Below are positions 1 through 8,996 of a DNA stretch of 8,996 nt, in pieces (position 1 is the stretch's first letter; each line of letters starts with the position of its first letter). Location: positions 1 to 8,996 of the IMG/VR virus record IMGVR_UViG_2579778899_000011; one strand, given 5' to 3'. The DNA is from a virus (Duplodnaviria; Heunggongvirae; Uroviricota; Caudoviricetes). Under the pieces are notes generated by a model. The model saw only the letters and a program-made list of their open reading frames with translations, did no database searches and was not told the DNA's origin. The position numbers and the translations under genes are program-made.

Positions 1-12
1 GGTGAGATATTT

Positions 13-363
13 ATGCCATCACGAATCCCACGCGCCTGCCGTAAGCGTGGATGTGCAGGTACAACCACAGACAGTTCTGGTTACTGCGATAAACATCGTG
101 GCGAAGGATGGGTACAGCATCAACGCGGACTGAGCCGCCACCAGCGTGGCTATGGCTCGAAATGGGATGCCATACGTGCGCGCATACTGAAGCGTGATAA
201 TCATCTGTGTCAGAACTGCCTGCGCAATGGGAGAGCCGTTGAAGCCAGAACTGTGGACCACATCATTCCGAAAGCTCATGGTGGCACGGATGCAGACAGT
301 AACCTGCAGAGTCTGTGCTGGCCCTGTCATAAAGCAAAAACAGCGCGCGAACGCATCAATTGA
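13..363 (+). CDS. Phage HNH endonuclease of the type that sits next to cos and the terminase genes in HK97-like phages
   Basis: 116-aa ORF with ATG at 13 and a GGTGAG Shine-Dalgarno at 1-6. N-terminal Cys cluster (CRKRGCAG...GYCDKH) and the HNH core CQNCL...DHIIPKAHGG...N...LCWPCH. Position directly upstream of terS matches HK97-like packaging modules. Confidence 0.85.
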   Translation: MPSRIPRACRKRGCAGTTTDSSGYCDKHRGEGWVQHQRGLSRHQRGYGSKWDAIRARILKRDNHLCQNCLRNGRAVEARTVDHIIPKAHGGTDADSNLQSLCWPCHKAKTARERIN

Positions 364-510
364 TAACAGTTCCCATCTGTAGGGGAGGGGCGGGTCAAAT
401 CTCTGCAACCCTGGCTGCTCAGTACCGCCGCCTGACCCTTCCTCACATCGCCGCAGGTTCGAAAACTTTTTTTGGAAATGTGAACAAACGATTGATAGGT
501 AAGACCGATT

Positions 511-993
511 ATGTCAGGACCTCCGAAAACCCCGCCACGCCTGCATTTGATACGAGGCAACCCCTCAAAGCGCCCCGTTAAAGACCCCAAAAAAACCGCT
601 AAAAAGGATGAAAAAGGTCTTCCTAAAATTCCGCAGCATTTAGGGGCACAGGGGAAGTACTGGTTCAGGCGAATGGCGGAAGAGCTGAATGCGGAAGGGA
701 TCATTTCTCAGCTTGATGCGCGTGCACTCGAGTTGCTGGTGGAAGCCTACACCGAATATCGGCATCACTGCGAAACACTAGATGTTGAGGGGTATACCTA
801 CCGCACGAAAACGCAGAGCGGTGATGTACTGATTAAGGCGCACCCCGCGGCGGCAATGAAAGCGGATGCCTGGAAGCGGATCCGGGCAATGCTTGCAGAG
901 TTTGGTATGTCACCGGCAAGCCGGGCTAAAGTAAATATCGCCGGACCGGATGATGTTGATCCGCTGGCGGAGCTTTTAAAAGCGAGAGACTGA
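511..993 (+). CDS. terS: Terminase small subunit, P27 family
   Basis: 160-aa ORF with a basic N-terminus (GNPSKRPVKDPKK) and the P27-family core YWFRRMAEEL...ARALELLVEAYTEY...GMSPASRAKV. Its stop overlaps the terL start (TGATG at 991-995), indicating translational coupling. Confidence 0.8.
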   Translation: MSGPPKTPPRLHLIRGNPSKRPVKDPKKTAKKDEKGLPKIPQHLGAQGKYWFRRMAEELNAEGIISQLDARALELLVEAYTEYRHHCETLDVEGYTYRTKTQSGDVLIKAHPAAAMKADAWKRIRAMLAEFGMSPASRAKVNIAGPDDVDPLAELLKARD

Positions 994-2186
994 TGGCAAA
1001 AGTGGCTGACGGGATCCGCTACGCCGAACGTGTTGTTGCAGGAGAAATTGTTGCTGGCGAATTTGTCCGCCTGGCCTGCCAGCGTTTTCTTGATGATCTG
1101 AAGTACGGCGAAGAGCGGGGGATTTATTTCAGTGAACCCCGTGCGCAGCACATCCTGAATTTCTACAAATTTGTGCCTCATGTAAAAGGGGCGCTGGCAG
1201 GCCAGCCCATTGAGTTGATGGACTGGCATGTATTTATCCTCATTAATATTTTTGGTTTTGTCATTCCGCTGGTCAATGAAGAGACCGGAGAAGTTGTCAT
1301 GCGCAGCGATGGCAGCGGACGTCCGGTGATGGTGCGCCGGTTCCGGACGGCGTACAACGAAGTCGCCCGTAAAAACGCAAAATCAACTCTGTCATCGGGT
1401 ATCGGCCTGTATATGACGGGGGCAGATGGTGAAGGCGGAGCTGAGGTGTATTCAGCCGCAACCACGCGTGACCAGGCCAGAATCGTGTTTGAAGACGCCA
1501 AAAATATGGTCAGAAAAGCCCGGTCGACACTCGGGCGGTTGTTTGATTTCAACAAGCTGGCGATTTACCAGGAGCAGAGCGCATCAAAATTTGAACCGCT
1601 TTCTTCGGATGCAAACAACCTGGATGGTCTGAACATCCACTGCGCCATTATTGATGAGCTGCATGCACATAAAACCCGTGACGTGTGGGACGTTCTGGAA
1701 ACGGCAACCGGTGCCCGTCTGCAGTCCCTTTTATTTGGTATCACCACGGCAGGGTTTAACAAGGAAGGGATTTGTTACGAGCAGCGTGATTACGCCATCA
1801 AGGTATTGCGTGGCTATAACAGCGACGTGGAGGGCGCTGTAAAAGACGACTCCTACTTTGCGATTATTTACACCCTCGATGAGGGAGATGATCCGTTTGA
1901 TGAAACGGTCTGGCAGAAAGCAAATCCCGGCCTGGGCATCTGTAAACGCTGGGATGATCTGCGTCGTCTGGCGAAAAAAGCGAAAGAACAGGTCTCTGCG
2001 CGGGTGAATTTTTTTACCAAGAAAGTAACATCACGCCGTAACAACAGTGCGACCTGTCCTGATTTTTTTAGTAACCAAATGAAAGAAAAAGATTTTTTCT
2101 TGTTCGTCGTTTTTGTTTTTTCTGGAAGGTTCTGGCTGTTTTCATCATTTGTGTATTGCACTGTGTATTGCAAAAACGGGTTATAA
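993..2186 (+). pseudogene. terL: Terminase large subunit, 5' ATPase portion only; protein-like sequence stops near 2020 and the ORF tail is AT-rich read-through
   Basis: Residues 1-~340 look like a phage large terminase ATPase domain, with a Walker-B-like IHCAIIDELH and a WQKANPGLG segment. After SARVNFFTKK (about 2004-2024) the frame reads TSRRNNSATCPDFF...FLFVVFVFSGRFWLF, which is low-complexity and not protein-like. Full-length large terminases in this family are about 500-600 aa, so the nuclease domain is absent. This length comparison is from memory, not computed. Confidence 0.7.
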
Positions 2187-2191
2187 ATCAC
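2020..2191. other. Probable left attachment junction (attL) of the inserted element: AT-rich spacer with a tandem 11-bp direct repeat just upstream of int
   Basis: Sharp change from terminase coding sequence to AT-rich sequence with T-runs. Tandem repeat tgtgtattgca at 2150-2160 and 2162-2172. The integrase ATG follows at 2192. Confidence 0.4.
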
Positions 2192-3400
2192 ATGGCTCTA
2201 AACAAACTGAGCGATAAAAAACTTCGTTCCCTGCTTGGGCGCAGGAGTGAGAGGCAGGAAACCATCGCTGATGGTAACGGGCTTTCGGTACGGGTCAGTA
2301 AATACGGATGTGTTAGTTTTGTTTTCTTTTACAGACTGGCGGGAAGGGGAACCGCGCCCATCTGGCTGACACTTGGAAAATATCCTGATCTGAGTCTCAA
2401 ATCAGCGAGAGAGATGCGCGATCAGTGTCGAACCTGGCTTGCGGAGGGCAGAGATCCACGGATTCAGATAAAAATTGAACGGGAAGCCACCTTGCAACCT
2501 GTTACCGTTCGTGAGGCACTTGAATACTGGCTTGATAATTATGCAATGGATAAGCGTAGGGGAGCAGAACATATCAGGCAGTGCTTTGGTAAACATATTT
2601 ATCCGGTGATTGGTCATGTACCACTTAGTGATTGCTCTATATCTATGTGGATCAAGTGTTTTGACAAAATAAAAAAAGTAGCACCTGTACAGGCCGGAGC
2701 TTTGTTGCGTATATCAAAACAGGCGCTTAAATTTTGTAGGGTAAGAAAATACGCGATTAGTCATGAAATTGATGATCTTGAGGTCTGTGATGTGGGAAAA
2801 AAGTCTGCGCGAAGAAGCAGGGTTTTAACAGATGATGAAATCAGAGATTTATGGCGAAGTATTAATACTGATTATGACAATCACGAATTATCATATGAAA
2901 ACCGAATTATTTTACGTTTCCTGGTAGTTTTTGGTTGTCGACTGTCAGAAGTATTACTGTCGTCCTGGGTAGAGTGGGATTTTGATAAGAAATTATGGCG
3001 CGTTCCCGCTGATCATAGCAAAAATGGCAGGGAAATAATCAGACCGATTCCTGATGGCATGTTTAACTGGTTAGTTACGTTAAAAAAAATAACAGGTAAC
3101 AAAGAAAATGTGATTGGGTTTGATATGCGTCAGTGTACGGCAAGCGTAACTATCGGTAAGACATGGAAAAGGATGAAACACTCGGAAAAATGGACGGCGC
3201 ATGATATGCGAAGAGTGTTTGCCACAAAGCTAAGTGATCATGGTTTTGAACATAATGTGGTTGAACAGTTGCTTGGGCACACATTAGGCGGTGTTGCCGG
3301 GGTTTATAACAGAAGTCAGTATATGGACAGAAAAAAAGAAGCTATGAACTGGTGGTACGACTATCTGAATAAGCTAATTAGTGGTGACGGTAATGATTGA
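2192..3400 (+). CDS. int: Tyrosine site-specific integrase, P4-like, with an N-terminal arm-type DNA-binding domain
   Basis: 402 aa from the ATG at 2192. N-terminus MALNKLSDKKLRSL...GLSVRVSKYG...F.FFYR is typical of P4-family integrase arm-binding domains. C-terminus carries the catalytic-core pattern ...RLSEVL...HDMRRVFATKL...LLGHTLGGVAGVYNRSQY. Confidence 0.9.
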   Translation: MALNKLSDKKLRSLLGRRSERQETIADGNGLSVRVSKYGCVSFVFFYRLAGRGTAPIWLTLGKYPDLSLKSAREMRDQCRTWLAEGRDPRIQIKIEREATLQPVTVREALEYWLDNYAMDKRRGAEHIRQCFGKHIYPVIGHVPLSDCSISMWIKCFDKIKKVAPVQAGALLRISKQALKFCRVRKYAISHEIDDLEVCDVGKKSARRSRVLTDDEIRDLWRSINTDYDNHELSYENRIILRFLVVFGCRLSEVLLSSWVEWDFDKKLWRVPADHSKNGREIIRPIPDGMFNWLVTLKKITGNKENVIGFDMRQCTASVTIGKTWKRMKHSEKWTAHDMRRVFATKLSDHGFEHNVVEQLLGHTLGGVAGVYNRSQYMDRKKEAMNWWYDYLNKLISGDGND

Positions 3401-3614
3401 AATAGTTACGCGTGAAGAACTTGAAAATGATAAAACAATCGACAGGATGATTAAGGAAGATGAATGTGCATGGTTAACAGCTCTTGGCCGGAGACACAGA
3501 GCATTACTTGAAAAGGAAGGAAAATTTCCACGGAAAATATGTATTGGCCCACAAACAAAAGTCTGGCGCTTATCTGAGGTGCTGGAATGGGTAAAGGGTG
3601 AATGGAAACCCTGA
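3393..3614 (+). CDS. alpA: AlpA-family phage transcriptional regulator/excisionase-like HTH protein (copy 1)
   Basis: Small ORF whose start overlaps the int stop. Carries the AlpA-type motif ...LGRRHRALLEKEGKFPRKICIGPQTKVWRLSEVLEWV. An alternative start exists at 3447. Confidence 0.65.
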   Translation: MIEIVTREELENDKTIDRMIKEDECAWLTALGRRHRALLEKEGKFPRKICIGPQTKVWRLSEVLEWVKGEWKP

Positions 3615-3637
3615 ACTAAATTAAATGAGATATAATC

Positions 3638-3662
3638 AACCCGTCTTTTGGCGGGTTTTTTT
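3638..3662 (+). terminator. Rho-independent terminator after alpA copy 1
   Basis: Hairpin aacccg-tcttttgg-cgggtt followed by a run of 7 T, seen directly in the sequence. Confidence 0.55.
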
Positions 3663-3677
3663 ATAGGTGATATTTTT

Positions 3678-3956
3678 ATGCAAAAATTTATTTATCCTAC
3701 ACCCGAAGAACGCATTCAGATTCTGAAAGAACATGGCGAACCGTATGATCGCCGTATACGCGAACATGAGTGTGCCAATCGTACCGGGCTTTCAAGAAGC
3801 AGACGTTGGGTACTTGAACAGGAGGGAGCATTTCCTGCTCGTGCTCATTTAGGGAAAGTGTCTGTTTCCTGGTTGCTCTCTGATGTGCTCTGGTGGGTTA
3901 TGCATCCGCCAGGAGTAAAGGAAGTAAACAGCCCATACAAAAACGCCAATAAGTAA
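3678..3956 (+). CDS. Second AlpA-like HTH regulator, a paralog of the upstream copy
   Basis: ATG at 3678 with an AGGTGA Shine-Dalgarno at 3665-3670. The track's TTG start at 3648 lies inside the upstream terminator and is rejected. Motif HECANRTGLSRSRRWVLEQEGAFPARAHLGKVSVSWLLSDVLWWV parallels copy 1. Confidence 0.6.
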   Translation: MQKFIYPTPEERIQILKEHGEPYDRRIREHECANRTGLSRSRRWVLEQEGAFPARAHLGKVSVSWLLSDVLWWVMHPPGVKEVNSPYKNANK

Positions 3957-3964
3957 TTACCGAC

Positions 3965-3995
3965 AACCCCGCACCACGCAATGCGGGGTTTTTTG
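3965..3995 (+). terminator. Rho-independent terminator after the second alpA-like gene
   Basis: Stem aaccccgca (3965-3973) pairs with tgcggggtt (3982-3990) around an 8-nt loop, followed by TTTTTG. Confidence 0.6.
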
Positions 3996-4013
3996 TATGT
4001 GAGGTAGAAAGTG

Positions 4014-4607
4014 ATGAATAAAAATATTGCCGCGACGGGCAAGGGTGACGCACGTCATGTGAAAAAATTCTGTGATATTCGTGATCTGGTCGTTCTGCGC
4101 TTTGATAGTGTGAACGTTCGCGTGGTGTATCTGAACGGCGATCCGTGGTTTGTTGGCGCTGATGTGTGTGCGGCGCTGGAAATTAGCAACGTTACCGATG
4201 CTGTTTCAGTTCTGGATAGCGATGAGGTAATGACCCTAGCTTTAACCGAGGGTCATTCAGGTAAGCGTGGTGGTGCCAGAAGTTGGAATGTTGTATCAGA
4301 ATCAGGTTTTTACAAGTTGATCGCCAGAAGTCGCAAAGCTGTTAATCCTGGCACGTTCGCCCATCGTTTCAGTAATTGGGTATTCAGAAATGTGATACCG
4401 GGTATCAGAAAAACGGGGGCTTATGGTATCCCGTGGGGCGCATTACAGGATTTTTCCCGCCGCAAAGAGCAATACCAGATAAGTGCCAGTGAGAAGGGGA
4501 GGGCGCTACAGGCATGTAAGCGCAAAAAGCGTGAACTGGAGGAGGAAGAAAAAAGGCTGATACGTGAATATCAGCCTGAGTTTTACTTTGGTGAGCGTAT
4601 TCAGTAA
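4014..4607 (+). CDS. Bro-N domain protein (phage antirepressor-like N-terminal domain) with a charged, coiled-coil-like C-terminus
   Basis: ATG at 4014 with a GAGGTAG Shine-Dalgarno at 4001-4007. Bro-N signatures: F...IR...DGDPWFVGADVCAALEISN...SESGFYKLIARSRKAVNPGTFAHRFSNWVFRNVIPGIRKTGAYG. C-terminus KRKKRELEEEEKRLIREY. No KilA-C/Ant C-terminal domain is apparent. Confidence 0.7.
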   Translation: MNKNIAATGKGDARHVKKFCDIRDLVVLRFDSVNVRVVYLNGDPWFVGADVCAALEISNVTDAVSVLDSDEVMTLALTEGHSGKRGGARSWNVVSESGFYKLIARSRKAVNPGTFAHRFSNWVFRNVIPGIRKTGAYGIPWGALQDFSRRKEQYQISASEKGRALQACKRKKRELEEEEKRLIREYQPEFYFGERIQ

Positions 4608-4890
4608 CCGCGTACGGTGCTGATTATACGGTACATCGTGTTAACCGGGAAGTTACCCACCAGCAAGGCAAAATCTTCTGCTAAAAAATGACATATGGCC
4701 AGTCGTCCGGAAAGCATGAAATTTTACAAAAATGGAAAATGAAGATTTTTATTGTGCTGGTGGGTAAAAACAAAAAGCGCCCCGTTACCGGAGCGCCCTT
4801 GCGAACAATTAACCTACTGCGCAAAAAATGAATCTGTGCGGGGGGATTATATCAACCGTGGTCGAAATGACCATAGTTGCAGGATAACAG

Positions 4891-4920
4891 GCAAAACAAA
4901 GGCCACCCGCTACGGTGGCC
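4891..4920 (-). terminator. Rho-independent terminator for leftward transcription
   Basis: Perfect 7-bp stem ggccacc/ggtggcc (4901-4920) around a 6-nt loop. On the minus strand it is followed by a U-rich tract (plus-strand caaaacaaa at 4892-4900). Confidence 0.5.
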
Positions 4921-4998
4921 CCTCGACACAAGCACACGTTATCCCCAACGCATGAGCATAACCAACAATGCCACATTTACGGCTGGTGGGCAATGTGA

Positions 4999-5172
4999 TC
5001 AGTCAGATTTGGTTCGTTCCAAGGTTTGCAACGAGAGCTTTTTCCTGTGCTCTTTAAGGAATTTCTCAAGAGCAAAAGCACATGGCGCGAATCTTTCTGA
5101 TTCATGCTCTATCTTTCTGCGCCGTCTTTTCCGTGCCGGTGATAATGTTTTGGTCAATTCTTTATCGGTCAT
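4999..5172 (-). CDS. Hypothetical small, highly basic protein downstream of the RHH-like gene; may be non-coding
   Basis: ORF in the six-frame track (4999-5187). An internal ATG at 5172 has an AGGA-like Shine-Dalgarno. Contains RKRRRRK. No recognisable family. Confidence 0.2.
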   Translation of the reverse strand: MTDKELTKTLSPARKRRRRKIEHESERFAPCAFALEKFLKEHRKKLSLQTLERTKSD

Positions 5173-5229
5173 TGTGTTGTCCTGCATAGCAATGCGCCGT
5201 AGTTACTCACACCACGGCGCTGGTGATGG

Positions 5230-5409
5230 TTACTCCTGCTCTTTGGCCTTGCGACGCTGGCGGTACTCAACTTCTCGCTTTAATGCTGCTGTTACAAACT
5301 GCCCTGTACTTTCACCAGGCATTTTTACCGCCTCAACATTGTTCATAACTTCATGCGGAACCCTTGCCGCAACTGTTTGTGATTTTGCGTTTACTGCTTT
5401 TGTCGCCAT
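5230..5409 (-). CDS. Small ribbon-helix-helix-like DNA-binding protein, candidate repressor of the divergent switch
   Basis: 59-aa ORF translated by hand from the minus strand: MATKAVNAKSQTVAARVPHEVMNNVEAVKMPGESTGQFVTAALKREVEYRQRRKAKEQE. GAGGGG Shine-Dalgarno about 8 nt upstream of the ATG. Not in the supplied track because it is under the length cut-off. The RHH assignment rests on a beta-strand/helix/helix pattern judged by eye. Confidence 0.4.
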   Translation of the reverse strand: MATKAVNAKSQTVAARVPHEVMNNVEAVKMPGESTGQFVTAALKREVEYRQRRKAKEQE

Positions 5410-5459
5410 GTTGTGTACCCCTCACAAAAAACAAATGCAGTATGCAGGAAAAAAAATAA

Positions 5460-5511
5460 GTGTTCAACACTTGACGTGTTTAACACCTGGGTTTAAATTG
5501 GTGTTCAACAC
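5460..5511. promoter_or_regulatory. Divergent promoter/operator region with three copies of an 11-bp palindrome
   Basis: gtgttcaacac at 5460-5470, gtgtttaacac at 5476-5486, gtgttcaacac at 5501-5511. Each is a GTGTT/AACAC inverted repeat. A -35-like ttgacg (5471-5476) and a -10-like taaatt (5494-5499) 17 bp apart sit between and over the operators, pointing rightward toward the operon starting at 5609. Confidence 0.5.
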
Positions 5512-5608
5512 CTTATTAATGCAAGGTGCAGAAACGACGAAACCCGGCAGTGCGCGAACACTAACCGGGCTTCTAACCACCAACGATAGCAAGCGTATCG
5601 AGGTAGCT

Positions 5609-5815
5609 ATGAGAAATCATACCACACACCCGCAAGGGCGGGACTCGCACAACCTGAATAAATACATCTGGCGTTTTATCGCCCTGAGTACGGCACAACC
5701 GCGCGTAATTCACATCGAGGCCACCAGCGAACAGGAAGCACGCCAGCAATCTCCTGATGGCTGCGTGATGGTATTCGCCGCCCGTATTCGTCAGGAGGTG
5801 AGCCATGTGCAATAA
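5609..5815 (+). CDS. Small protein resembling the Icd-like (host cell division inhibitor) family of P4-like elements
   Basis: 68 aa, MRNHTTHPQGRDSHNLNKYIWRFIALSTAQPRVIHIEATSEQEARQQ..., with GAGG just upstream of the ATG. The family assignment is from memory of annotations in P4-like islands, not from a search. Confidence 0.4.
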   Translation: MRNHTTHPQGRDSHNLNKYIWRFIALSTAQPRVIHIEATSEQEARQQSPDGCVMVFAARIRQEVSHVQ

Positions 5816-6050
5816 CACCCGTCCGGACGCAGCCGCCGAAGCTATCAGAACGCTGATGCACGCGCTGATTGATATTTCATGCACGGCAGCAACCGCAGAA
5901 AAACACATTACCAGAGAGACGGAATATACAGGGGCAATAATCCCGCATTCGCTGGTCTACACACAGCTTACCGCTGATATGGCGCTGAATGAGGCTAAAG
6001 CCATCCTGATTGCTGATTGTGAAAATGGCGGGGGCGATTATGCGAAATAA
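5805..6050 (+). CDS. Hypothetical protein, translationally coupled to the upstream gene
   Basis: 81-aa ORF with a strong AGGAGGTG Shine-Dalgarno at 5793-5800. Its ATG at 5805 overlaps the stop of the preceding gene at 5813-5815. Confidence 0.4.
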   Translation: MCNNTRPDAAAEAIRTLMHALIDISCTAATAEKHITRETEYTGAIIPHSLVYTQLTADMALNEAKAILIADCENGGGDYAK

Positions 6051-6258
6051 ACATGATATTGAAGACCTGGCATTTGAAGCCCTGCACTCTGCGAAAAAAA
6101 TCAGGGAAGTCGTCAATATGTGGATGAACAGCCTTAGCACCGATAAATCCGATAGCAGAGAAGAAATTCTTATTTCTTTGTTGTTAGACCTGGCAAATAC
6201 ACAGGTTTCTCTGACATCTGATATTGAGCTCGCCGCTAAAAAGCTGCCTCTGGAGTAA
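6040..6258 (+). CDS. Hypothetical small acidic protein
   Basis: The ATG at 6040 overlaps the stop of the previous gene at 6048-6050. An alternative ATG lies at 6025. No recognisable motif. Confidence 0.35.
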   Translation: MRNKHDIEDLAFEALHSAKKIREVVNMWMNSLSTDKSDSREEILISLLLDLANTQVSLTSDIELAAKKLPLE

Positions 6259-6264
6259 AAAAAC

Positions 6265-6579
6265 ATGAAAAAGAAAAATTCTGGCTTTACTGCCAGCGGT
6301 CACGCTCGGCCTGAAATCCGCCCCGGTGATATTTTCCGGGATAAATACGGCAGCACGATAACGATTAAAACCGTCGATGATTTTCGTGTGACCTATATCC
6401 GCGAAGGTTATGCGCATCCCTGCGTGTCGTCACATATGCGCTTTGACAGGGAGTTCACCCTGGTAAGCAAAGCACCACCAGCAGAATTAAGCGACATCGA
6501 CAGAATCATGCGCGTTACAGGAATGGAACGCATTAAGGCAGTACGTGAAATTATTCGTGAACGGGGAAAGGCAAAATGA
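6265..6579 (+). CDS. Small protein, DUF4222-like, of the kind found immediately upstream of replication genes in P4-like islands
   Basis: 104-aa ORF with a GGAG Shine-Dalgarno about 8 nt upstream. Motif PGDIFRDKYGSTITIKTVDDFRVTYIREGYAHPC. Its stop overlaps the start of the next gene (ATGA at 6576-6579). DUF assignment is from memory. Confidence 0.35.
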   Translation: MKKKNSGFTASGHARPEIRPGDIFRDKYGSTITIKTVDDFRVTYIREGYAHPCVSSHMRFDREFTLVSKAPPAELSDIDRIMRVTGMERIKAVREIIRERGKAK

Positions 6580-8702
6580 AGCGCGCACCAAACTTAAAGC
6601 ACCAGCCAGCCGACAAAATGACGGAGGTTATCATCTTTGCGGGTAGTGATGCGTGGAGCCATGCGAAAGAGTGGCAGGAATGGGCAGGTAAACATATTGC
6701 CGCCGACAATGTGCCGCCTGTCGTTCTGTCAGATGAACACCTGAAAGATATTACTGGTTATCAAATTATTGATGATAGCCGTCAGTGTGTGCGTATTTAC
6801 CGCGCAGGGCACATCACTGAACGTAGCCTCACACAGATCGTCACGTTGCTGGCTGTGGCTGGCGTGAAGACCGTATACGAATACGCGGGGATAACTGACA
6901 CCAGCCCGGCGGATTTATCCGACCAGTTGCCTCGCCTCAAAGACGAATACGAGCGCGGGGAAAGTCTGGTGTTGCCCTTAAAGAAAAAAATCACAGAAAG
7001 CCCGGGTGATGATGAATTAAAGCCCCGCGTTGAAAGCCGCGCCGATGGTGTTTTCTGGGTAACGCCAAAAGTGGATAAGCAGTCAGGCGAAATTATCCGG
7101 CCTGAAACGTGGTTATGCTCCCCGCTTGAGCTACTGGGAACGGGGACAATCGGCAAAGAGCATTACCGCGTGATGCGCTGGAAAAAGCCAGCAAACCATG
7201 ACGTCATCACGATGGCGGTTCCGTGCGGTGGCATTGGCGACCGTGACGGCTGGCGGCTGCTGAAAGACCACGGACTGAACGTGACAACCAACGGTAAATA
7301 CAGGGCTATCCTGGCTGACTGGATGCAGTTAAGCGGAAACCATGAGGAATGGCAGTTAAGCACAACAACGGGCTGGCATTTTGGCGCGTACATCATGCCG
7401 GACGGTTCGGTCATTGGTGATTGCGAAAAGCCAGTCCTGTTTACCGGAAAAACGGCTGCCGTTAATGGTTATTCCGTGGCAGGAACGGCGGAGGGCTGGC
7501 GCGATACCGTGGCGCGACTGGCTGGTGGTAATCCGTCCATGATGCTGGGTGTGGCGGTATCGCTATCCGCACCATTAATCGGGCTGGTGGGCGCTGATGG
7601 CTTCGGGGTACATCTTTTCGAACAGTCATCAGCAGGTAAGACCACAACGCAGAACATCGCATCAAGTTTATGGGGGGAGCCGGACGCACAACGGCTGACC
7701 TGGTACGGCACAGCGTTAGGTATCGCCAACGAAGCAGAGGCACACAATGACGGGCTTTTACCCCTGGATGAAATAGGTCAGGCCGGAAACGCGCGGGAGG
7801 TGTCCACGTCAGCCTATACGCTGTTTAACGGTTCAGGGAAATTACAGGGGGCAAAGGACGGCGGCAACAGGGAGATAAAACACTGGCGAACGGTGGCAAT
7901 CAGTACCGGAGAAATGGACGTTGAAACATTCCTCAAAACGGAGGGGATAAAAGTCAAGGCGGGGCAGCTTGTCCGTCTGCTTAACGTGCCGATGGAAAAA
8001 GCCACGCAGTTTCACGAATACAGCACCGGAAAGGCACACGCAGACGCGTTAAAGGATGCCTGGACAGCAAATCACGGGGCGGCTGGTCGTGAATGGGTTA
8101 AATGGCTGGCAGACCACCAGCAGGAGGCAAAGGACGCGGTAAGGGCATGCCGTGAACGGTGGCGCAATCTGATACCGGAGAGCTACGGCGAACAGGTTCA
8201 CCGCGTGGGTGAGCGATTCGCCATACTGGAGGCCGCGCTTGTGCTTTCCGGTCATGTTACTGGCTGGGATGTTCAGGCGTGCCGCGATGCCATACAGCAT
8301 AATTTTAATGCCTGGGTGAAGGAATTCGGTACGGGTAACAGGGAGTTTAAACAGATGGTTGAACAGGCAGAGGCTTTTTTAGCGTCGTTCGGATTCAGCA
8401 GATACCTTCCGTGGCCCAACACCGACGAGCGTGATTTACCGATTAAAGAGCTTGCCGGATACAGAAAGGGGAGTATCAGAAACGAAGATGACGAGTTCCG
8501 TTTTTACACGTTCCCACATGTATTTGAGGGTGAGATAGCACAGGGATTTAATCCGTCTCACTTTGCCCGCGCGTTGAGTGCTGCCGGAATGCTGGAAGCG
8601 GGTAACGATCGCCGTTACAAGAAAAAGGCGCTCGGCAGGATTGGGGGGAAGCAGCATGTTTTTTACGTGCTGATGTTCCAGCCAGAAAGCGAAGAAGATT
8701 AA
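6576..8702 (+). CDS. Replication initiator, a P-loop NTPase (primase/helicase-like; DUF927 or SF3-like family candidate)
   Basis: 708-aa ORF. Walker A EQSSAGKTT at residues 349-357 (nt 7620-7646). Walker-B-like LLPLDE about 40 residues downstream. A large N-terminal domain has no motif I can name. Lies immediately upstream of an iteron-rich origin-like region. Confidence 0.65.
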   Translation: MKRAPNLKHQPADKMTEVIIFAGSDAWSHAKEWQEWAGKHIAADNVPPVVLSDEHLKDITGYQIIDDSRQCVRIYRAGHITERSLTQIVTLLAVAGVKTVYEYAGITDTSPADLSDQLPRLKDEYERGESLVLPLKKKITESPGDDELKPRVESRADGVFWVTPKVDKQSGEIIRPETWLCSPLELLGTGTIGKEHYRVMRWKKPANHDVITMAVPCGGIGDRDGWRLLKDHGLNVTTNGKYRAILADWMQLSGNHEEWQLSTTTGWHFGAYIMPDGSVIGDCEKPVLFTGKTAAVNGYSVAGTAEGWRDTVARLAGGNPSMMLGVAVSLSAPLIGLVGADGFGVHLFEQSSAGKTTTQNIASSLWGEPDAQRLTWYGTALGIANEAEAHNDGLLPLDEIGQAGNAREVSTSAYTLFNGSGKLQGAKDGGNREIKHWRTVAISTGEMDVETFLKTEGIKVKAGQLVRLLNVPMEKATQFHEYSTGKAHADALKDAWTANHGAAGREWVKWLADHQQEAKDAVRACRERWRNLIPESYGEQVHRVGERFAILEAALVLSGHVTGWDVQACRDAIQHNFNAWVKEFGTGNREFKQMVEQAEAFLASFGFSRYLPWPNTDERDLPIKELAGYRKGSIRNEDDEFRFYTFPHVFEGEIAQGFNPSHFARALSAAGMLEAGNDRRYKKKALGRIGGKQHVFYVLMFQPESEED

Positions 8703-8724
8703 TTTTTTCTCGCGTGTAGGGTGA

Positions 8725-8880
8725 AAATTTTGCGGGTTATGCGGGTTATTTCTGTGGATAAATCAGCATCCATATGATTATTAAAGGAATGACAGAAAAA
8801 TCGTAACCCGCAAAATACCCAAAATAACCCGCAAAACGGCAGTTATAACCCGCAAAAGTGCGATTATAACCCGCAGAATT
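8725..8880. repeat. Origin-of-replication-like iteron array with a DnaA box and an AT-rich spacer
   Basis: Four direct repeats of (t)ataacccgca(a/g)aa at about 8804, 8824, 8845 and 8866, spaced roughly 20-21 bp. Inverted tandem copies gcgggttat at 8731-8749. A perfect DnaA box TTATCCACA on the minus strand (plus tgtggataa, 8753-8761). AT-rich stretch at 8750-8800. Confidence 0.6.
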
Positions 8881-8938
8881 TCACCGTAAGGGTGTAAACA
8901 AGCGTAACCATCAACGTTAAAACCGGAGAGCAGACAGC

Positions 8939-8996
8939 ATGACAGCACAGATAGCGGCTTACGGGCGGCTGGTGGCTGACCCGCAGTTAAAGACCA
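8939..8996 (+). CDS. 5' end of a gene running off the window; N-terminus resembles the start of SSB-type OB-fold proteins
   Basis: ATG at 8939 preceded by GGAGAG. MTAQIAAYGRLVADPQLKT resembles the N-terminal strand of SSB family proteins. Only 19 residues are visible. Confidence 0.25.
   Translation, partial: MTAQIAAYGRLVADPQLKT

Follow-up and report, generated by a model that had tools for sequence, protein, structure and literature searches.

The DNA analysed here, called the window below, is a stretch of 8,996 nucleotides (nt) that corresponds to positions 1 to 8,996 of the virus record IMGVR_UViG_2579778899_000011. It is E. coli DNA: the whole window is 95–98% identical to about thirty complete genomes (97.6% over the window for the locus named L002), and the region of the gene with which this work is concerned, bro, is 100% identical to strain GF31. 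The bro gene encodes a small Bro-N protein and belongs to a phage-inducible chromosomal island (PICI). Genes int (2192–3400), alpA (3381–3614), a second alpA (3678–3956), bro (4014–4607) and a primase gene (6576–8702) follow one another in the same orientation, as in islands with a Bro zone. The island lies within the large-terminase gene (terL) of a prophage, both in the window and in the loci L001 and L002, which confirms the satellite context proposed in an earlier reading of the DNA made without database searches (the sequence-only reading).

Gram-negative PICIs have been divided into ordered zones, Integration, Bro, Replication and Late, by Tommasini, Mageeney and Williams (2023; PMC10111431). 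According to these authors, the Bro zone contains mostly domain-swapping "Bro network" proteins and sometimes immunity RNAs; the zone was described collectively, without functional tests, and their list of integration sites contains A:Terminase_1:245/246 (PMC10111431). He et al. (2025) singled out the gene after alpA in capsid-forming PICIs (cf-PICIs) as variable and "of unknown function", and the EcCIMP1 paper draws an "antirepressor" gene without a test. That the gene exists, and roughly where it lies, is thus known from these three studies and RefSeq. The element and the Bro zone are published and the function of Bro remains the gap: the AlpA dependence of Gram-negative PICIs is known, and what the variable gene after alpA does is not described in the literature that we searched. 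What was worked out here is the satellite-restricted distribution of the family, its tail motif, its patch-limited allele classes and the terminator that precedes bro in embedded islands.

The bro gene and its product

The features of bro are as follows.

4014–4607, plus strand: bro, encoding a 197-residue Bro-N protein (open reading frame (ORF) call, Pfam, PHROG, AlphaFold2)
4113–4400, plus strand: Bro-N domain, residues 34–129
4155–4298, plus strand: putative exchangeable recognition patch, residues 48–95, allele class A, containing GHSGKRGGARSWN
4434–4604, plus strand: conserved charged helical tail, residues 141–197 (AlphaFold2 helix, family conservation)

The gene starts with the ATG at 4014, its stop codon ends at 4607, and the product has 197 residues. 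A GAGG ribosome-binding site is present at 4001–4004, and translation could alternatively start at an in-frame GTG at 4011. The Pfam Bro-N profile (PF02498) matched residues 34–129 over its entire length (profile positions 1–96 of 96; 61 bits, cut-off 25.6; E = 1.8e-16). In the Pfam scan of the protein (E ≤ 0.01) Bro-N was the sole family, and ANT/KilAC (PF03374), P22_AR_C and ORF6C, the halves that accompany it in many "Ant" proteins, are therefore absent. Both the Bro-N domain and the lack of an Ant/KilA-C half had been put forward in the sequence-only reading, and both stand. Residues 1–195 matched PHROG 2593 ("anti-repressor"; E = 4.4e-77), other Ant PHROGs matched too, and RefSeq names the product "BRO family protein". 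No NCBIfam or PADLOC model matched Bro, and the tail gave no sequence match in Pfam, NCBIfam or the PDB. When solved structures were searched by sequence, the single Bro protein found nothing and the family profile found only chance-level TonB hits.

The AlphaFold2 model, built on 13 close relatives, has a mean predicted local distance difference test score (pLDDT) of 63. It consists of a beta-rich core with helices (residues 18–134) and a single long helix (residues 141–186; helix pLDDT 44–80). The fold is of the Bro-N/KilA-N/APSES type, and all significant structural neighbours of the model are DNA-binding domains, in agreement with Foldseek: the N-terminal domain of Cydia pomonella granulovirus (CpGV) Orf22 (score 8.2), Mbp1 (6.6), Dachshund (6.1), DdrC (5.9), Ski (4.9) and Bqt4 (4.8). 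The baculovirus BRO/CpGV Orf22, APSES (Mbp1), Dachshund/Ski and DdrC winged-helix-like domains are 8–18% identical to Bro; the proteins that contain them belong to eukaryotes, eukaryotic viruses or Deinococcus and have unrelated roles and partners.

Bro as a whole is basic (isoelectric point (pI) 9.6, net charge +9), and its invariant residues 96–134 have a pI of 11.8. The 57 residues of the tail (141–197) include 14 lysines or arginines and 11 aspartates or glutamates. The tail had been described beforehand as charged and helical, which the model bears out, and as a coiled coil, which is plausible, the heptad pattern being weak.

Distribution of the Bro family

Of 5,426 complete E. coli genomes, 226 (about 4%) carry the bro region, in all cases on the chromosome. 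Nine further E. coli islands were examined. By integration site, the islands are distributed as follows.

HK97-type terL: L001, L002, L007 and L012
Lambda gpA-type terL: L005 (in a Shiga toxin (Stx) 2c phage), L006 (in an O157:H7 prophage) and L009
Portal gene: L010 and L011
tRNA-Gly: L008

These islands differ in their integrases, primases and late zones, and bro follows alpA in all of them; in L008, it is preceded by alpA plus an antA/B gene. Two of the insertions concern toxin phages: the bro-family islands of L005 (17354–29835, CP028381) and L006 (6206–18078, CP038416) interrupt the lambda-type terminase genes of the Stx2c prophage and the O157:H7 prophage, respectively, and could affect Stx phage production. 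In L012 (2089–3443, AP042637, strain OkiPb01706), bro is truncated at its 3' end, and a 315-amino-acid (aa) ORF on the minus strand replaces the spacer and ylcI; this natural rearrangement is seen in one strain of a series of bovine isolates that are nearly identical.

When one genome per species was scanned, 10 relatives with 50–66% identity were found, all covering the tail, in Serratia, Raoultella, Klebsiella, Erwinia, Leclercia, Proteus, Chania and Yersinia. Nine loci had usable flanks, and seven of them have bro about 2 kb downstream of an integrase gene and upstream of a primase gene in the same orientation; for the Raoultella and Yersinia loci, the downstream primase alone was detected, and the Chania locus was left out of this comparison because its contig is too short. 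Four of the loci outside E. coli are integrated at tRNA-Arg and one at tRNA-Gly, and others lie beside chromosomal genes.

Matches in 50,697 phage records were confined to the Bro-N domain and were all below 60% identity. The Bro-N superfamily itself is large, with 19,345 representatives at E ≤ 0.001, of which 18 reach E ≤ 1e-30. A search with tail residues 130–197 returned four fragments only, and this query missed the full-length family itself. Because islands carry the complete protein and phage records match Bro-N alone, the combination of Bro-N with this tail looks like a satellite lineage, and judged by these searches, the family looks satellite-associated across Enterobacterales.

A conserved scaffold with an exchangeable patch

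Residues 48–95 are where 117 family representatives mainly differ from one another, and the tail is nearly invariant. The core sequence ESGFYKLIxRSRKA…FAHRFSNW…IRKTGxYG is invariant across genera. In the tail, positions S159, G162, L165, Q166, C168, K169, K172, L175, E178, E179 and L182 are kept across genera, as are Y186, Q187 and P188 of the terminal YQPxL.

The same pattern is seen at the DNA level. The window and the otherwise unrelated Stx-phage-embedded island L005 share a block, 3978–5006, that comprises the 3' arm of the terminator preceding bro, bro itself and about 400 bp of downstream spacer. Compared in bins of 30 nt, the two agree at 27–30 positions per bin outside 4131–4310 and at 11–24 inside, with 11–19 in the stretch that encodes the patch itself. 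Outside the patch, 15 codon changes are synonymous and 5 are non-synonymous (in the tail, 6 and 2, respectively).

The patch sequences form discrete classes.

Class A (GHSGKRGGARSWN): the window, L008, Serratia, Raoultella and Klebsiella
Class B (SYGIRGNPNH): L005, L009 and Chania
Class D (LTYTPGGNQNM): L007, L010 and Yersinia
Class E (GECLxPTPGGxQxMRTV): L011, Erwinia and Leclercia
Class F: Proteus

The classes recur in different genera and on different backbones. For instance, the class A patch of L008 is 92% identical to that of the window at the DNA level, and its backbone is otherwise divergent. As read from these sequences, the patch is a sub-domain that old alleles have exchanged by recombination, as would be expected if it determined specificity. 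A donor among E. coli prophage bro genes was also considered and was rejected, as the patch matched the same 226 genomes only.

We then compared the allele classes with other variable features of the islands. Classes A and D both occur at HK97-type terL, and D also at the portal gene. Co-variation with primase type was not seen in this small sample. Nearly identical YlcI proteins accompany A and D (L007 versus L008), the same Bro allele is found with different YlcI proteins (L005 versus L006), and a different YlcI accompanies B. No class-A-specific 10–12-mers were found from −2.2 to +4.5 kb of bro. Finally, the N-terminal 70 residues of the helper CI repressors of L001 (class A) and L005 (class B) differ at one position (n = 2). 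In these small samples, the sequence comparisons argue against a linked target in cis and against specificity for the helper CI.

Transcriptional organization of bro

Two putative intrinsic terminators on the coding strand precede bro.

3638–3664 (hairpin 3638–3657), plus strand: intrinsic terminator after the first alpA, with an 8-bp stem containing five GC pairs, followed by TTTTTTT
3965–3996 (hairpin 3965–3990), plus strand: intrinsic terminator just upstream of bro, with a 9-bp stem containing six GC pairs and a T-run

Hence, the tandem alpA paralogues (3381–3996) are each followed by one intrinsic terminator. In L005, L006 and L009, as in L010 and L011, there is one alpA only, followed by the same terminator-bro arrangement. 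The terminator upstream of bro ends 23 nt before the ATG at 4014, a gap too short for a promoter, and its 3' arm forms the left edge of the shared bro cassette, which starts at 3978. A scan for sigma-70-like promoters, which recognises consensus sites only, found none on the plus strand between 1900 and 4100. No plus-strand terminator was detected within 200 nt downstream of bro; the hairpins at 4773–4800 and 4898–4923 are opposite-strand terminators that end leftward transcripts. The gene had been described as flanked by terminators and as its own unit. The upstream terminator is indeed there, but there is none on the same strand downstream, and the absence of a promoter speaks against a separate unit. 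Given the upstream terminator and the lack of both a promoter and a downstream terminator, bro is a distal, terminator-gated member of the int-alpA-alpA array. In L008, bro overlaps the antA/B gene upstream of it, in line with co-transcription of alpA and bro. A further structure, a 10-bp inverted repeat at 4554–4577 within the coding region of the tail, is followed by a T-run on the minus strand and could for that reason end antisense transcription that runs into bro from the convergent side.

The terminator upstream of bro is present in 8 of 8 helper-embedded islands, 23–25 nt before bro, and in 0 of 10 other loci, eight of which are chromosomal. Two kinds of stem occur, ACCCCGC…GCGGGGT and GCCCCTC…GAGGGGT, so that it is the structure rather than the sequence that is conserved. 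A gene for the helper Q antiterminator is present upstream in L001, L002, L005 and L007, and it has been proposed that helper late transcription enters the embedded island (PMC10111431).

Organization of the island and the helper prophage

The other features of the window are listed below.

13–993, plus strand: helper late genes, an HNH endonuclease gene (13–363) and a P27-family small-terminase (TerS) gene (511–993) (Pfam, RefSeq)
993–2025, plus strand: 5' fragment of helper terL, cut by the island (Pfam TerL_ATPase and the first 68 of 286 TerL_nuclease positions)
2150–2171, plus strand: doubled motif, CTGTGTATTGC twice, about 130 bp inside attL (read from the sequence)
2192–3400, plus strand: island tyrosine integrase (Pfam Phage_integrase and Arm-DNA-bind_3)
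3381–3614, plus strand: alpA paralogue 1 (Pfam Phage_AlpA, E = 2.5e-9)
3678–3956, plus strand: alpA paralogue 2 (Pfam Phage_AlpA, E = 5.6e-10; PHROG 2790, E = 2.4e-34)
4608–4998, no strand assigned: structured non-coding spacer between convergent units, with minus-strand terminators at 4773–4800 and 4898–4923 and a promoter-like site at 4846–4873
4999–5409, minus strand: leftward genes, a 62-aa ORF (4999–5187) and a YlcI/YnfO-family protein gene (5230–5409)
5454–5511, plus strand: two copies of the palindrome GTGTTCAACAC around a rightward promoter-like site (5471–5499)
5609–8702, plus strand: replication zone with an icd-like gene (5609–5815), small ORFs, DUF4222 (6265–6579) and DUF927 primase (6576–8702)

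The helper late genes gave Pfam matches to HNH (E = 1.9e-16) and Terminase_4 (E = 2.6e-25) and are annotated alike in the RefSeq loci L001 and L002. RefSeq labels the terL fragment "terminase large subunit, missing C-terminus". The 5' fragment ends near 2025 in the window, and the 3' fragment follows the island in L002. An exact-repeat search for the attL core gave a shared core of 7 bp only (TCACGAA in L002), and the crossover near 2022–2030 is therefore approximate.

The capsid and packaging genes and the right island junction lie beyond the end of the window and were read from L002. There, the island is preceded by prophage lysis genes, HNH, TerS and truncated terL. It then runs through int, alpA, alpA, bro, ylcI (leftward), an icd-like gene, small ORFs, DUF4222 and DUF927 primase, and continues with ssb, ProQ, capsid, prohead protease, portal, connector, HNH, TerS and TerL genes. 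The 3' remainder of the prophage terL follows, and after it the prophage portal, protease and capsid genes. Capsid, protease, portal, connector, HNH, TerS and TerL are thus all encoded by the L002 island itself, and it is well supported that the element is a capsid-forming PICI inserted within, and co-oriented with, the large-terminase gene of a lambdoid prophage (a helper-embedded PICI, HE-PICI). The gene order of L002 agrees with the published HE-PICI layout and its four zones (PMC10111431), as well as with the layout of cf-PICIs. A satellite with its own HNH-TerS-TerL genes is accordingly found inside helper terL (window 993–2030; L002 12991–14019, 26815–28476 and 28986–29729), and the island and interrupted helper TerL proteins are 33% identical. 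Because the island sits inside helper terL, helper packaging is genetically off until the island is excised.

The position of the doubled CTGTGTATTGC motif matches that of the HE-PICI-specific doubled motif in the attP arm reported by Tommasini et al. (PMC10111431), and a related copy of the tandem motif is present in L002 at 28900–28920, about 80 bp before attR.

The leftward genes were identified by NCBIfam (YlcI_YnfO_N, E = 2.1e-16) and by PHROGs 949 and 21027. Between the YlcI/YnfO gene and the icd-like/primase operon, the two GTGTTCAACAC copies lie 41 bp apart and bracket the only rightward promoter-like site (5471–5499); by its sequence and position, the pair looks like an operator pair for an island repressor switch. 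A 312-aa ORF on the plus strand (4877–5815) runs across the two leftward genes and, taken in full, is probably not a real gene; its last 68 codons (5609–5815, with their own GAGG site) are the annotated icd-like protein.

Candidate RNAs in the spacer downstream of bro

The minus strand of the spacer has a fold with z = −4.2. A promoter-like site on this strand (4873 to 4846; 10 of 12 matches, extended −10 TG) and, after it, a strong terminator (4800 to 4773) would together give a candidate RNA of about 75 nt (4839 to 4765) convergent with bro. Segment 4765–4995 is 90–93% conserved in about 200 E. coli genomes, in many more islands than the bro block. The candidate RNA matched no Rfam family, and its pairing with the leaders of bro, alpA and the replication operon was not better than that of shuffles.

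A direct repeat of 21 nt (76% identity) is present in the spacer after bro (4642–4662) and in the leader of the icd-like operon (5562–5582). Pairing with the icd leader is better for the complement of 4630–4700 than for 199 of 200 shuffles, and this is the only segment of which that holds. A sub-threshold symR-like Rfam match (32 bits; gathering score 61) at 5536–5608 on the minus strand overlaps the second repeat copy. In the whole window, no Rfam match to C4 or isrK was obtained at E ≤ 1, only sub-threshold matches to symR and sau-6072. The repeat and pairing region could be a P4-CI-like RNA immunity element missed by current models.

Relation to known systems

The closest parallels to bro are the Bro-zone genes of PICIs and HE-PICIs, with which it shares position, orientation, a Bro-network Pfam domain and insertion in a terminase gene (PMC10111431). 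The Bro-N head is homologous to those of the Listeria AriS family and Staphylococcus aureus phage phi11 Gp07, but those proteins have ANT/KilAC where Bro has the conserved charged helix of 57 residues with its YQPxL end. AriS-family proteins have AntA/AntB, Bro-N or pRha heads, and SOS inhibition is a property of KilAC; a separate, phage-specific regulatory activity belongs to the head, as tested for AntA/AntB in AriS (PMC9043618). Gp07 has a Bro-N head, and its KilA-C half carries growth inhibition (PMC5944126). With the SOS-inhibiting and growth-inhibiting activities assigned to KilAC, the simplest view of a Bro-N protein that lacks this domain is that its head provides specificity and its tail serves oligomerisation or partner binding.

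Among coliphage Bro-N proteins (N15 gp30 and the phiV10/ZX5 "anti-immunity" proteins), identity to Bro is 45–52% over residues ~22–138 (52% over 22–138 for N15 gp30, which has 264 aa; 45% for phiV10). These proteins have longer, unrelated C-terminal halves, so the likeness stops at the end of the domain; the function of N15 gp30 has been named by homology only.

Phage P4 epsilon (PF25738) and eta (Phage_ASH) lie between vis, an alpA homologue, and the primase gene, and are positional analogues only. Homology of Bro to these proteins was rejected, as BLASTP gave E = 2.4 against epsilon (all E > 1) and the Pfam families are different; PF25738 matches P4 epsilon itself at E = 9e-51. Likewise, orf81 was rejected as an epsilon relative, its weak BLAST match (E = 0.001 in a tiny database) not being backed by Pfam.

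The Vibrio cholerae PICI-like element (PLE) protein CapR, which has been assigned to the Bro network, is a satellite repressor of the helper capsid operon that acts on helper DNA. Being a satellite Bro-network protein that represses helper genes by DNA binding, it is a functional precedent for the mechanism favoured below. However, CapR is of the T5orf172 homing-endonuclease lineage, whereas Bro has neither a nuclease-related domain nor sequence similarity to it, and the helpers differ.

Discussion

The best general reading of bro is that it encodes a satellite factor aimed at the helper. In our view, Bro may be a dimeric DNA-binding regulator that acts in trans on phage targets, with its specificity set by the patch allele. 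Based on the sequence comparisons and the structural model, we give this reading a probability of roughly 0.4. Bro would be a basic, probably oligomeric protein whose Bro-N head reads its target via the exchangeable surface patch (residues ~48–95), while the conserved charged helix at the C-terminus would pair subunits and/or contact a conserved partner. As the last gene of the int-alpA-alpA-bro array, bro appears to have no promoter of its own, and because an intrinsic terminator lies 23–25 nt before its start, substantial expression in embedded islands should need terminator-resistant transcription. The likely source would be Q-modified late transcription of the helper that continues into the island from the interrupted terL, the alternative being strong transcription driven by AlpA. 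In chromosomal islands, bro would simply be co-transcribed with alpA. Induction of the satellite would thus yield Bro along with AlpA, and Bro would act on regulatory DNA from the helper or from a co-resident phage, or perhaps on a phage protein, tuning phage gene expression in favour of the satellite, with the allele class setting the phages on which it works. A more far-reaching version, which we regard as doubtful, is that Bro is a satellite adaptor with a few ancient patch classes, common to several Enterobacterales genera, that decide which phages are exploited or suppressed, and that in helper-embedded islands the terminator 23–25 nt before the gene locks its expression to Q-antiterminated helper late transcription.

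Several points weigh against a DNA-binding regulator of this kind. The patch is acidic (net charge −4) and would suit a protein-protein interface as well. Relatives are labelled "antirepressor" in PHROG and RefSeq, no target sequence for Bro was identified, and binding, expression or phenotype data for the family were not found in the literature searched. Confidence in the AlphaFold2 model is moderate (pLDDT 63), with the linker and parts of the tail below 50. The contrast between 8 of 8 and 0 of 10 loci with a terminator is confounded by the shared descent of the E. coli cassette, and an AlpA-dependent promoter would have been missed by a scan limited to consensus sigma-70 sites.

An alternative that we consider possible but unlikely, and that takes in the P4-epsilon-like role suggested in the sequence-only reading, is that Bro is an antirepressor acting by protein contact: it would bind the immunity repressor of a resident prophage, be it the helper or another one, and so derepress that prophage, either on arrival in a lysogen, as P4 epsilon does, or by inducing prophages that supply tails to a capsid-forming island. 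The PHROG 2593 match (E = 4.4e-77), the other Ant PHROGs and many database names point this way, and a Bro-N protein of phage ZX5 lowered lysogeny on over-expression (PMC9782041). The position of bro after an alpA homologue and before the primase gene is that of eta and epsilon in P4, its discrete, old allele classes resemble immunity specificities, an acidic patch would fit, and the tails that cf-PICIs need often have to come from another phage than the one that induces them. However, Pfam finds no ANT/KilAC, P22_AR_C or other effector domain in Bro, and the activities tested in AriS-like proteins and phi11 Gp07 reside in KilAC rather than in their AntA/AntB (AriS) and Bro-N (Gp07) heads. There is no similarity to P4 epsilon, and PF25738 gave no match to bro or to the other small ORFs scanned in the window. 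The helper repressors of L001 and L005 are of the LexA family by annotation. Such repressors normally inactivate themselves by cleavage on SOS, so that helper induction should not need an antirepressor. Moreover, nearly identical CI DNA-binding domains accompany different Bro alleles (A versus B; n = 2), bro in the embedded state would be transcribed only once the helper is already derepressed, and Bro is basic (pI 9.6) with structural neighbours that are all DNA-binding domains. Taken together, the evidence tilts from "antirepressor" towards "allele-specific DNA-binding regulator", which fits slightly better. Bro might instead bind DNA of the island itself, as a cofactor of AlpA or Int at the att site or at island promoters, and control the excision/replication switch. 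Its position beside alpA is fixed in every island examined, co-transcription with alpA is likely (in L008, bro overlaps antA/B), and the conserved doubled HE-PICI motif beside attP, visible here at 2150–2171, would be a candidate binding site. This seems rather improbable to us, as nearby island DNA shows no variation to match that of the patch alleles: 10–12-mers specific to allele A are lacking from −2.2 to +4.5 kb, and YlcI proteins and Bro alleles are uncoupled (L007 versus L008; L005 versus L006). In addition, over-expression of AlpA alone is enough to induce the cf-PICI EcCIEDL933.

We think still less of the idea that Bro is directed at the host, as a take-over or toxic factor like kil/KilA of P4/P1 that the upstream terminator silences because it is harmful. 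It would account for the tight terminator insulation and the lack of a promoter, for a tail conserved across genera with different phages, as expected for a conserved host partner, and for a basic composition of the nucleoid-binding type; the Bro domain of Gp07 is mildly and transiently toxic in E. coli. Yet the terminator is absent in non-embedded relatives, a conserved host target does not explain discrete allele classes, and Gp07 toxicity resides mainly in KilA-C, which Bro lacks. The same allelic diversity is typical of conflict genes and, together with the defence hotspots that satellites carry and the related KilA-N domain that heads the abortive-infection protein BstA, brings to mind an anti-phage defence or superinfection-exclusion protein carried as satellite cargo. 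This we hold to be very improbable: PADLOC-DB 2.0 gave no match (E ≤ 0.01) for bro and five scanned neighbouring small ORFs, Bro is a single small protein without an effector domain, and in He et al. the immune loci are expected on either side of the packaging module, the gene after alpA being treated apart from them.

If Bro, as a DNA-binding regulator, sets the phages that are acted on, this would help to explain satellite helper range and helper interference and, for capsid-forming islands, would bear on the recruitment of extra phages. If the adaptor version were true, swapping the patch would re-target the satellite, making Bro a determinant of helper range or of interference specificity. 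The family is a convenient experimental handle, as the protein is small and has an invariant scaffold with few, swappable natural patch alleles, and cognate helper-satellite pairs are known in advance because both are physically linked in the same locus. The Bro family is thus a tractable entry to what the Bro zone does in Gram-negative satellites.

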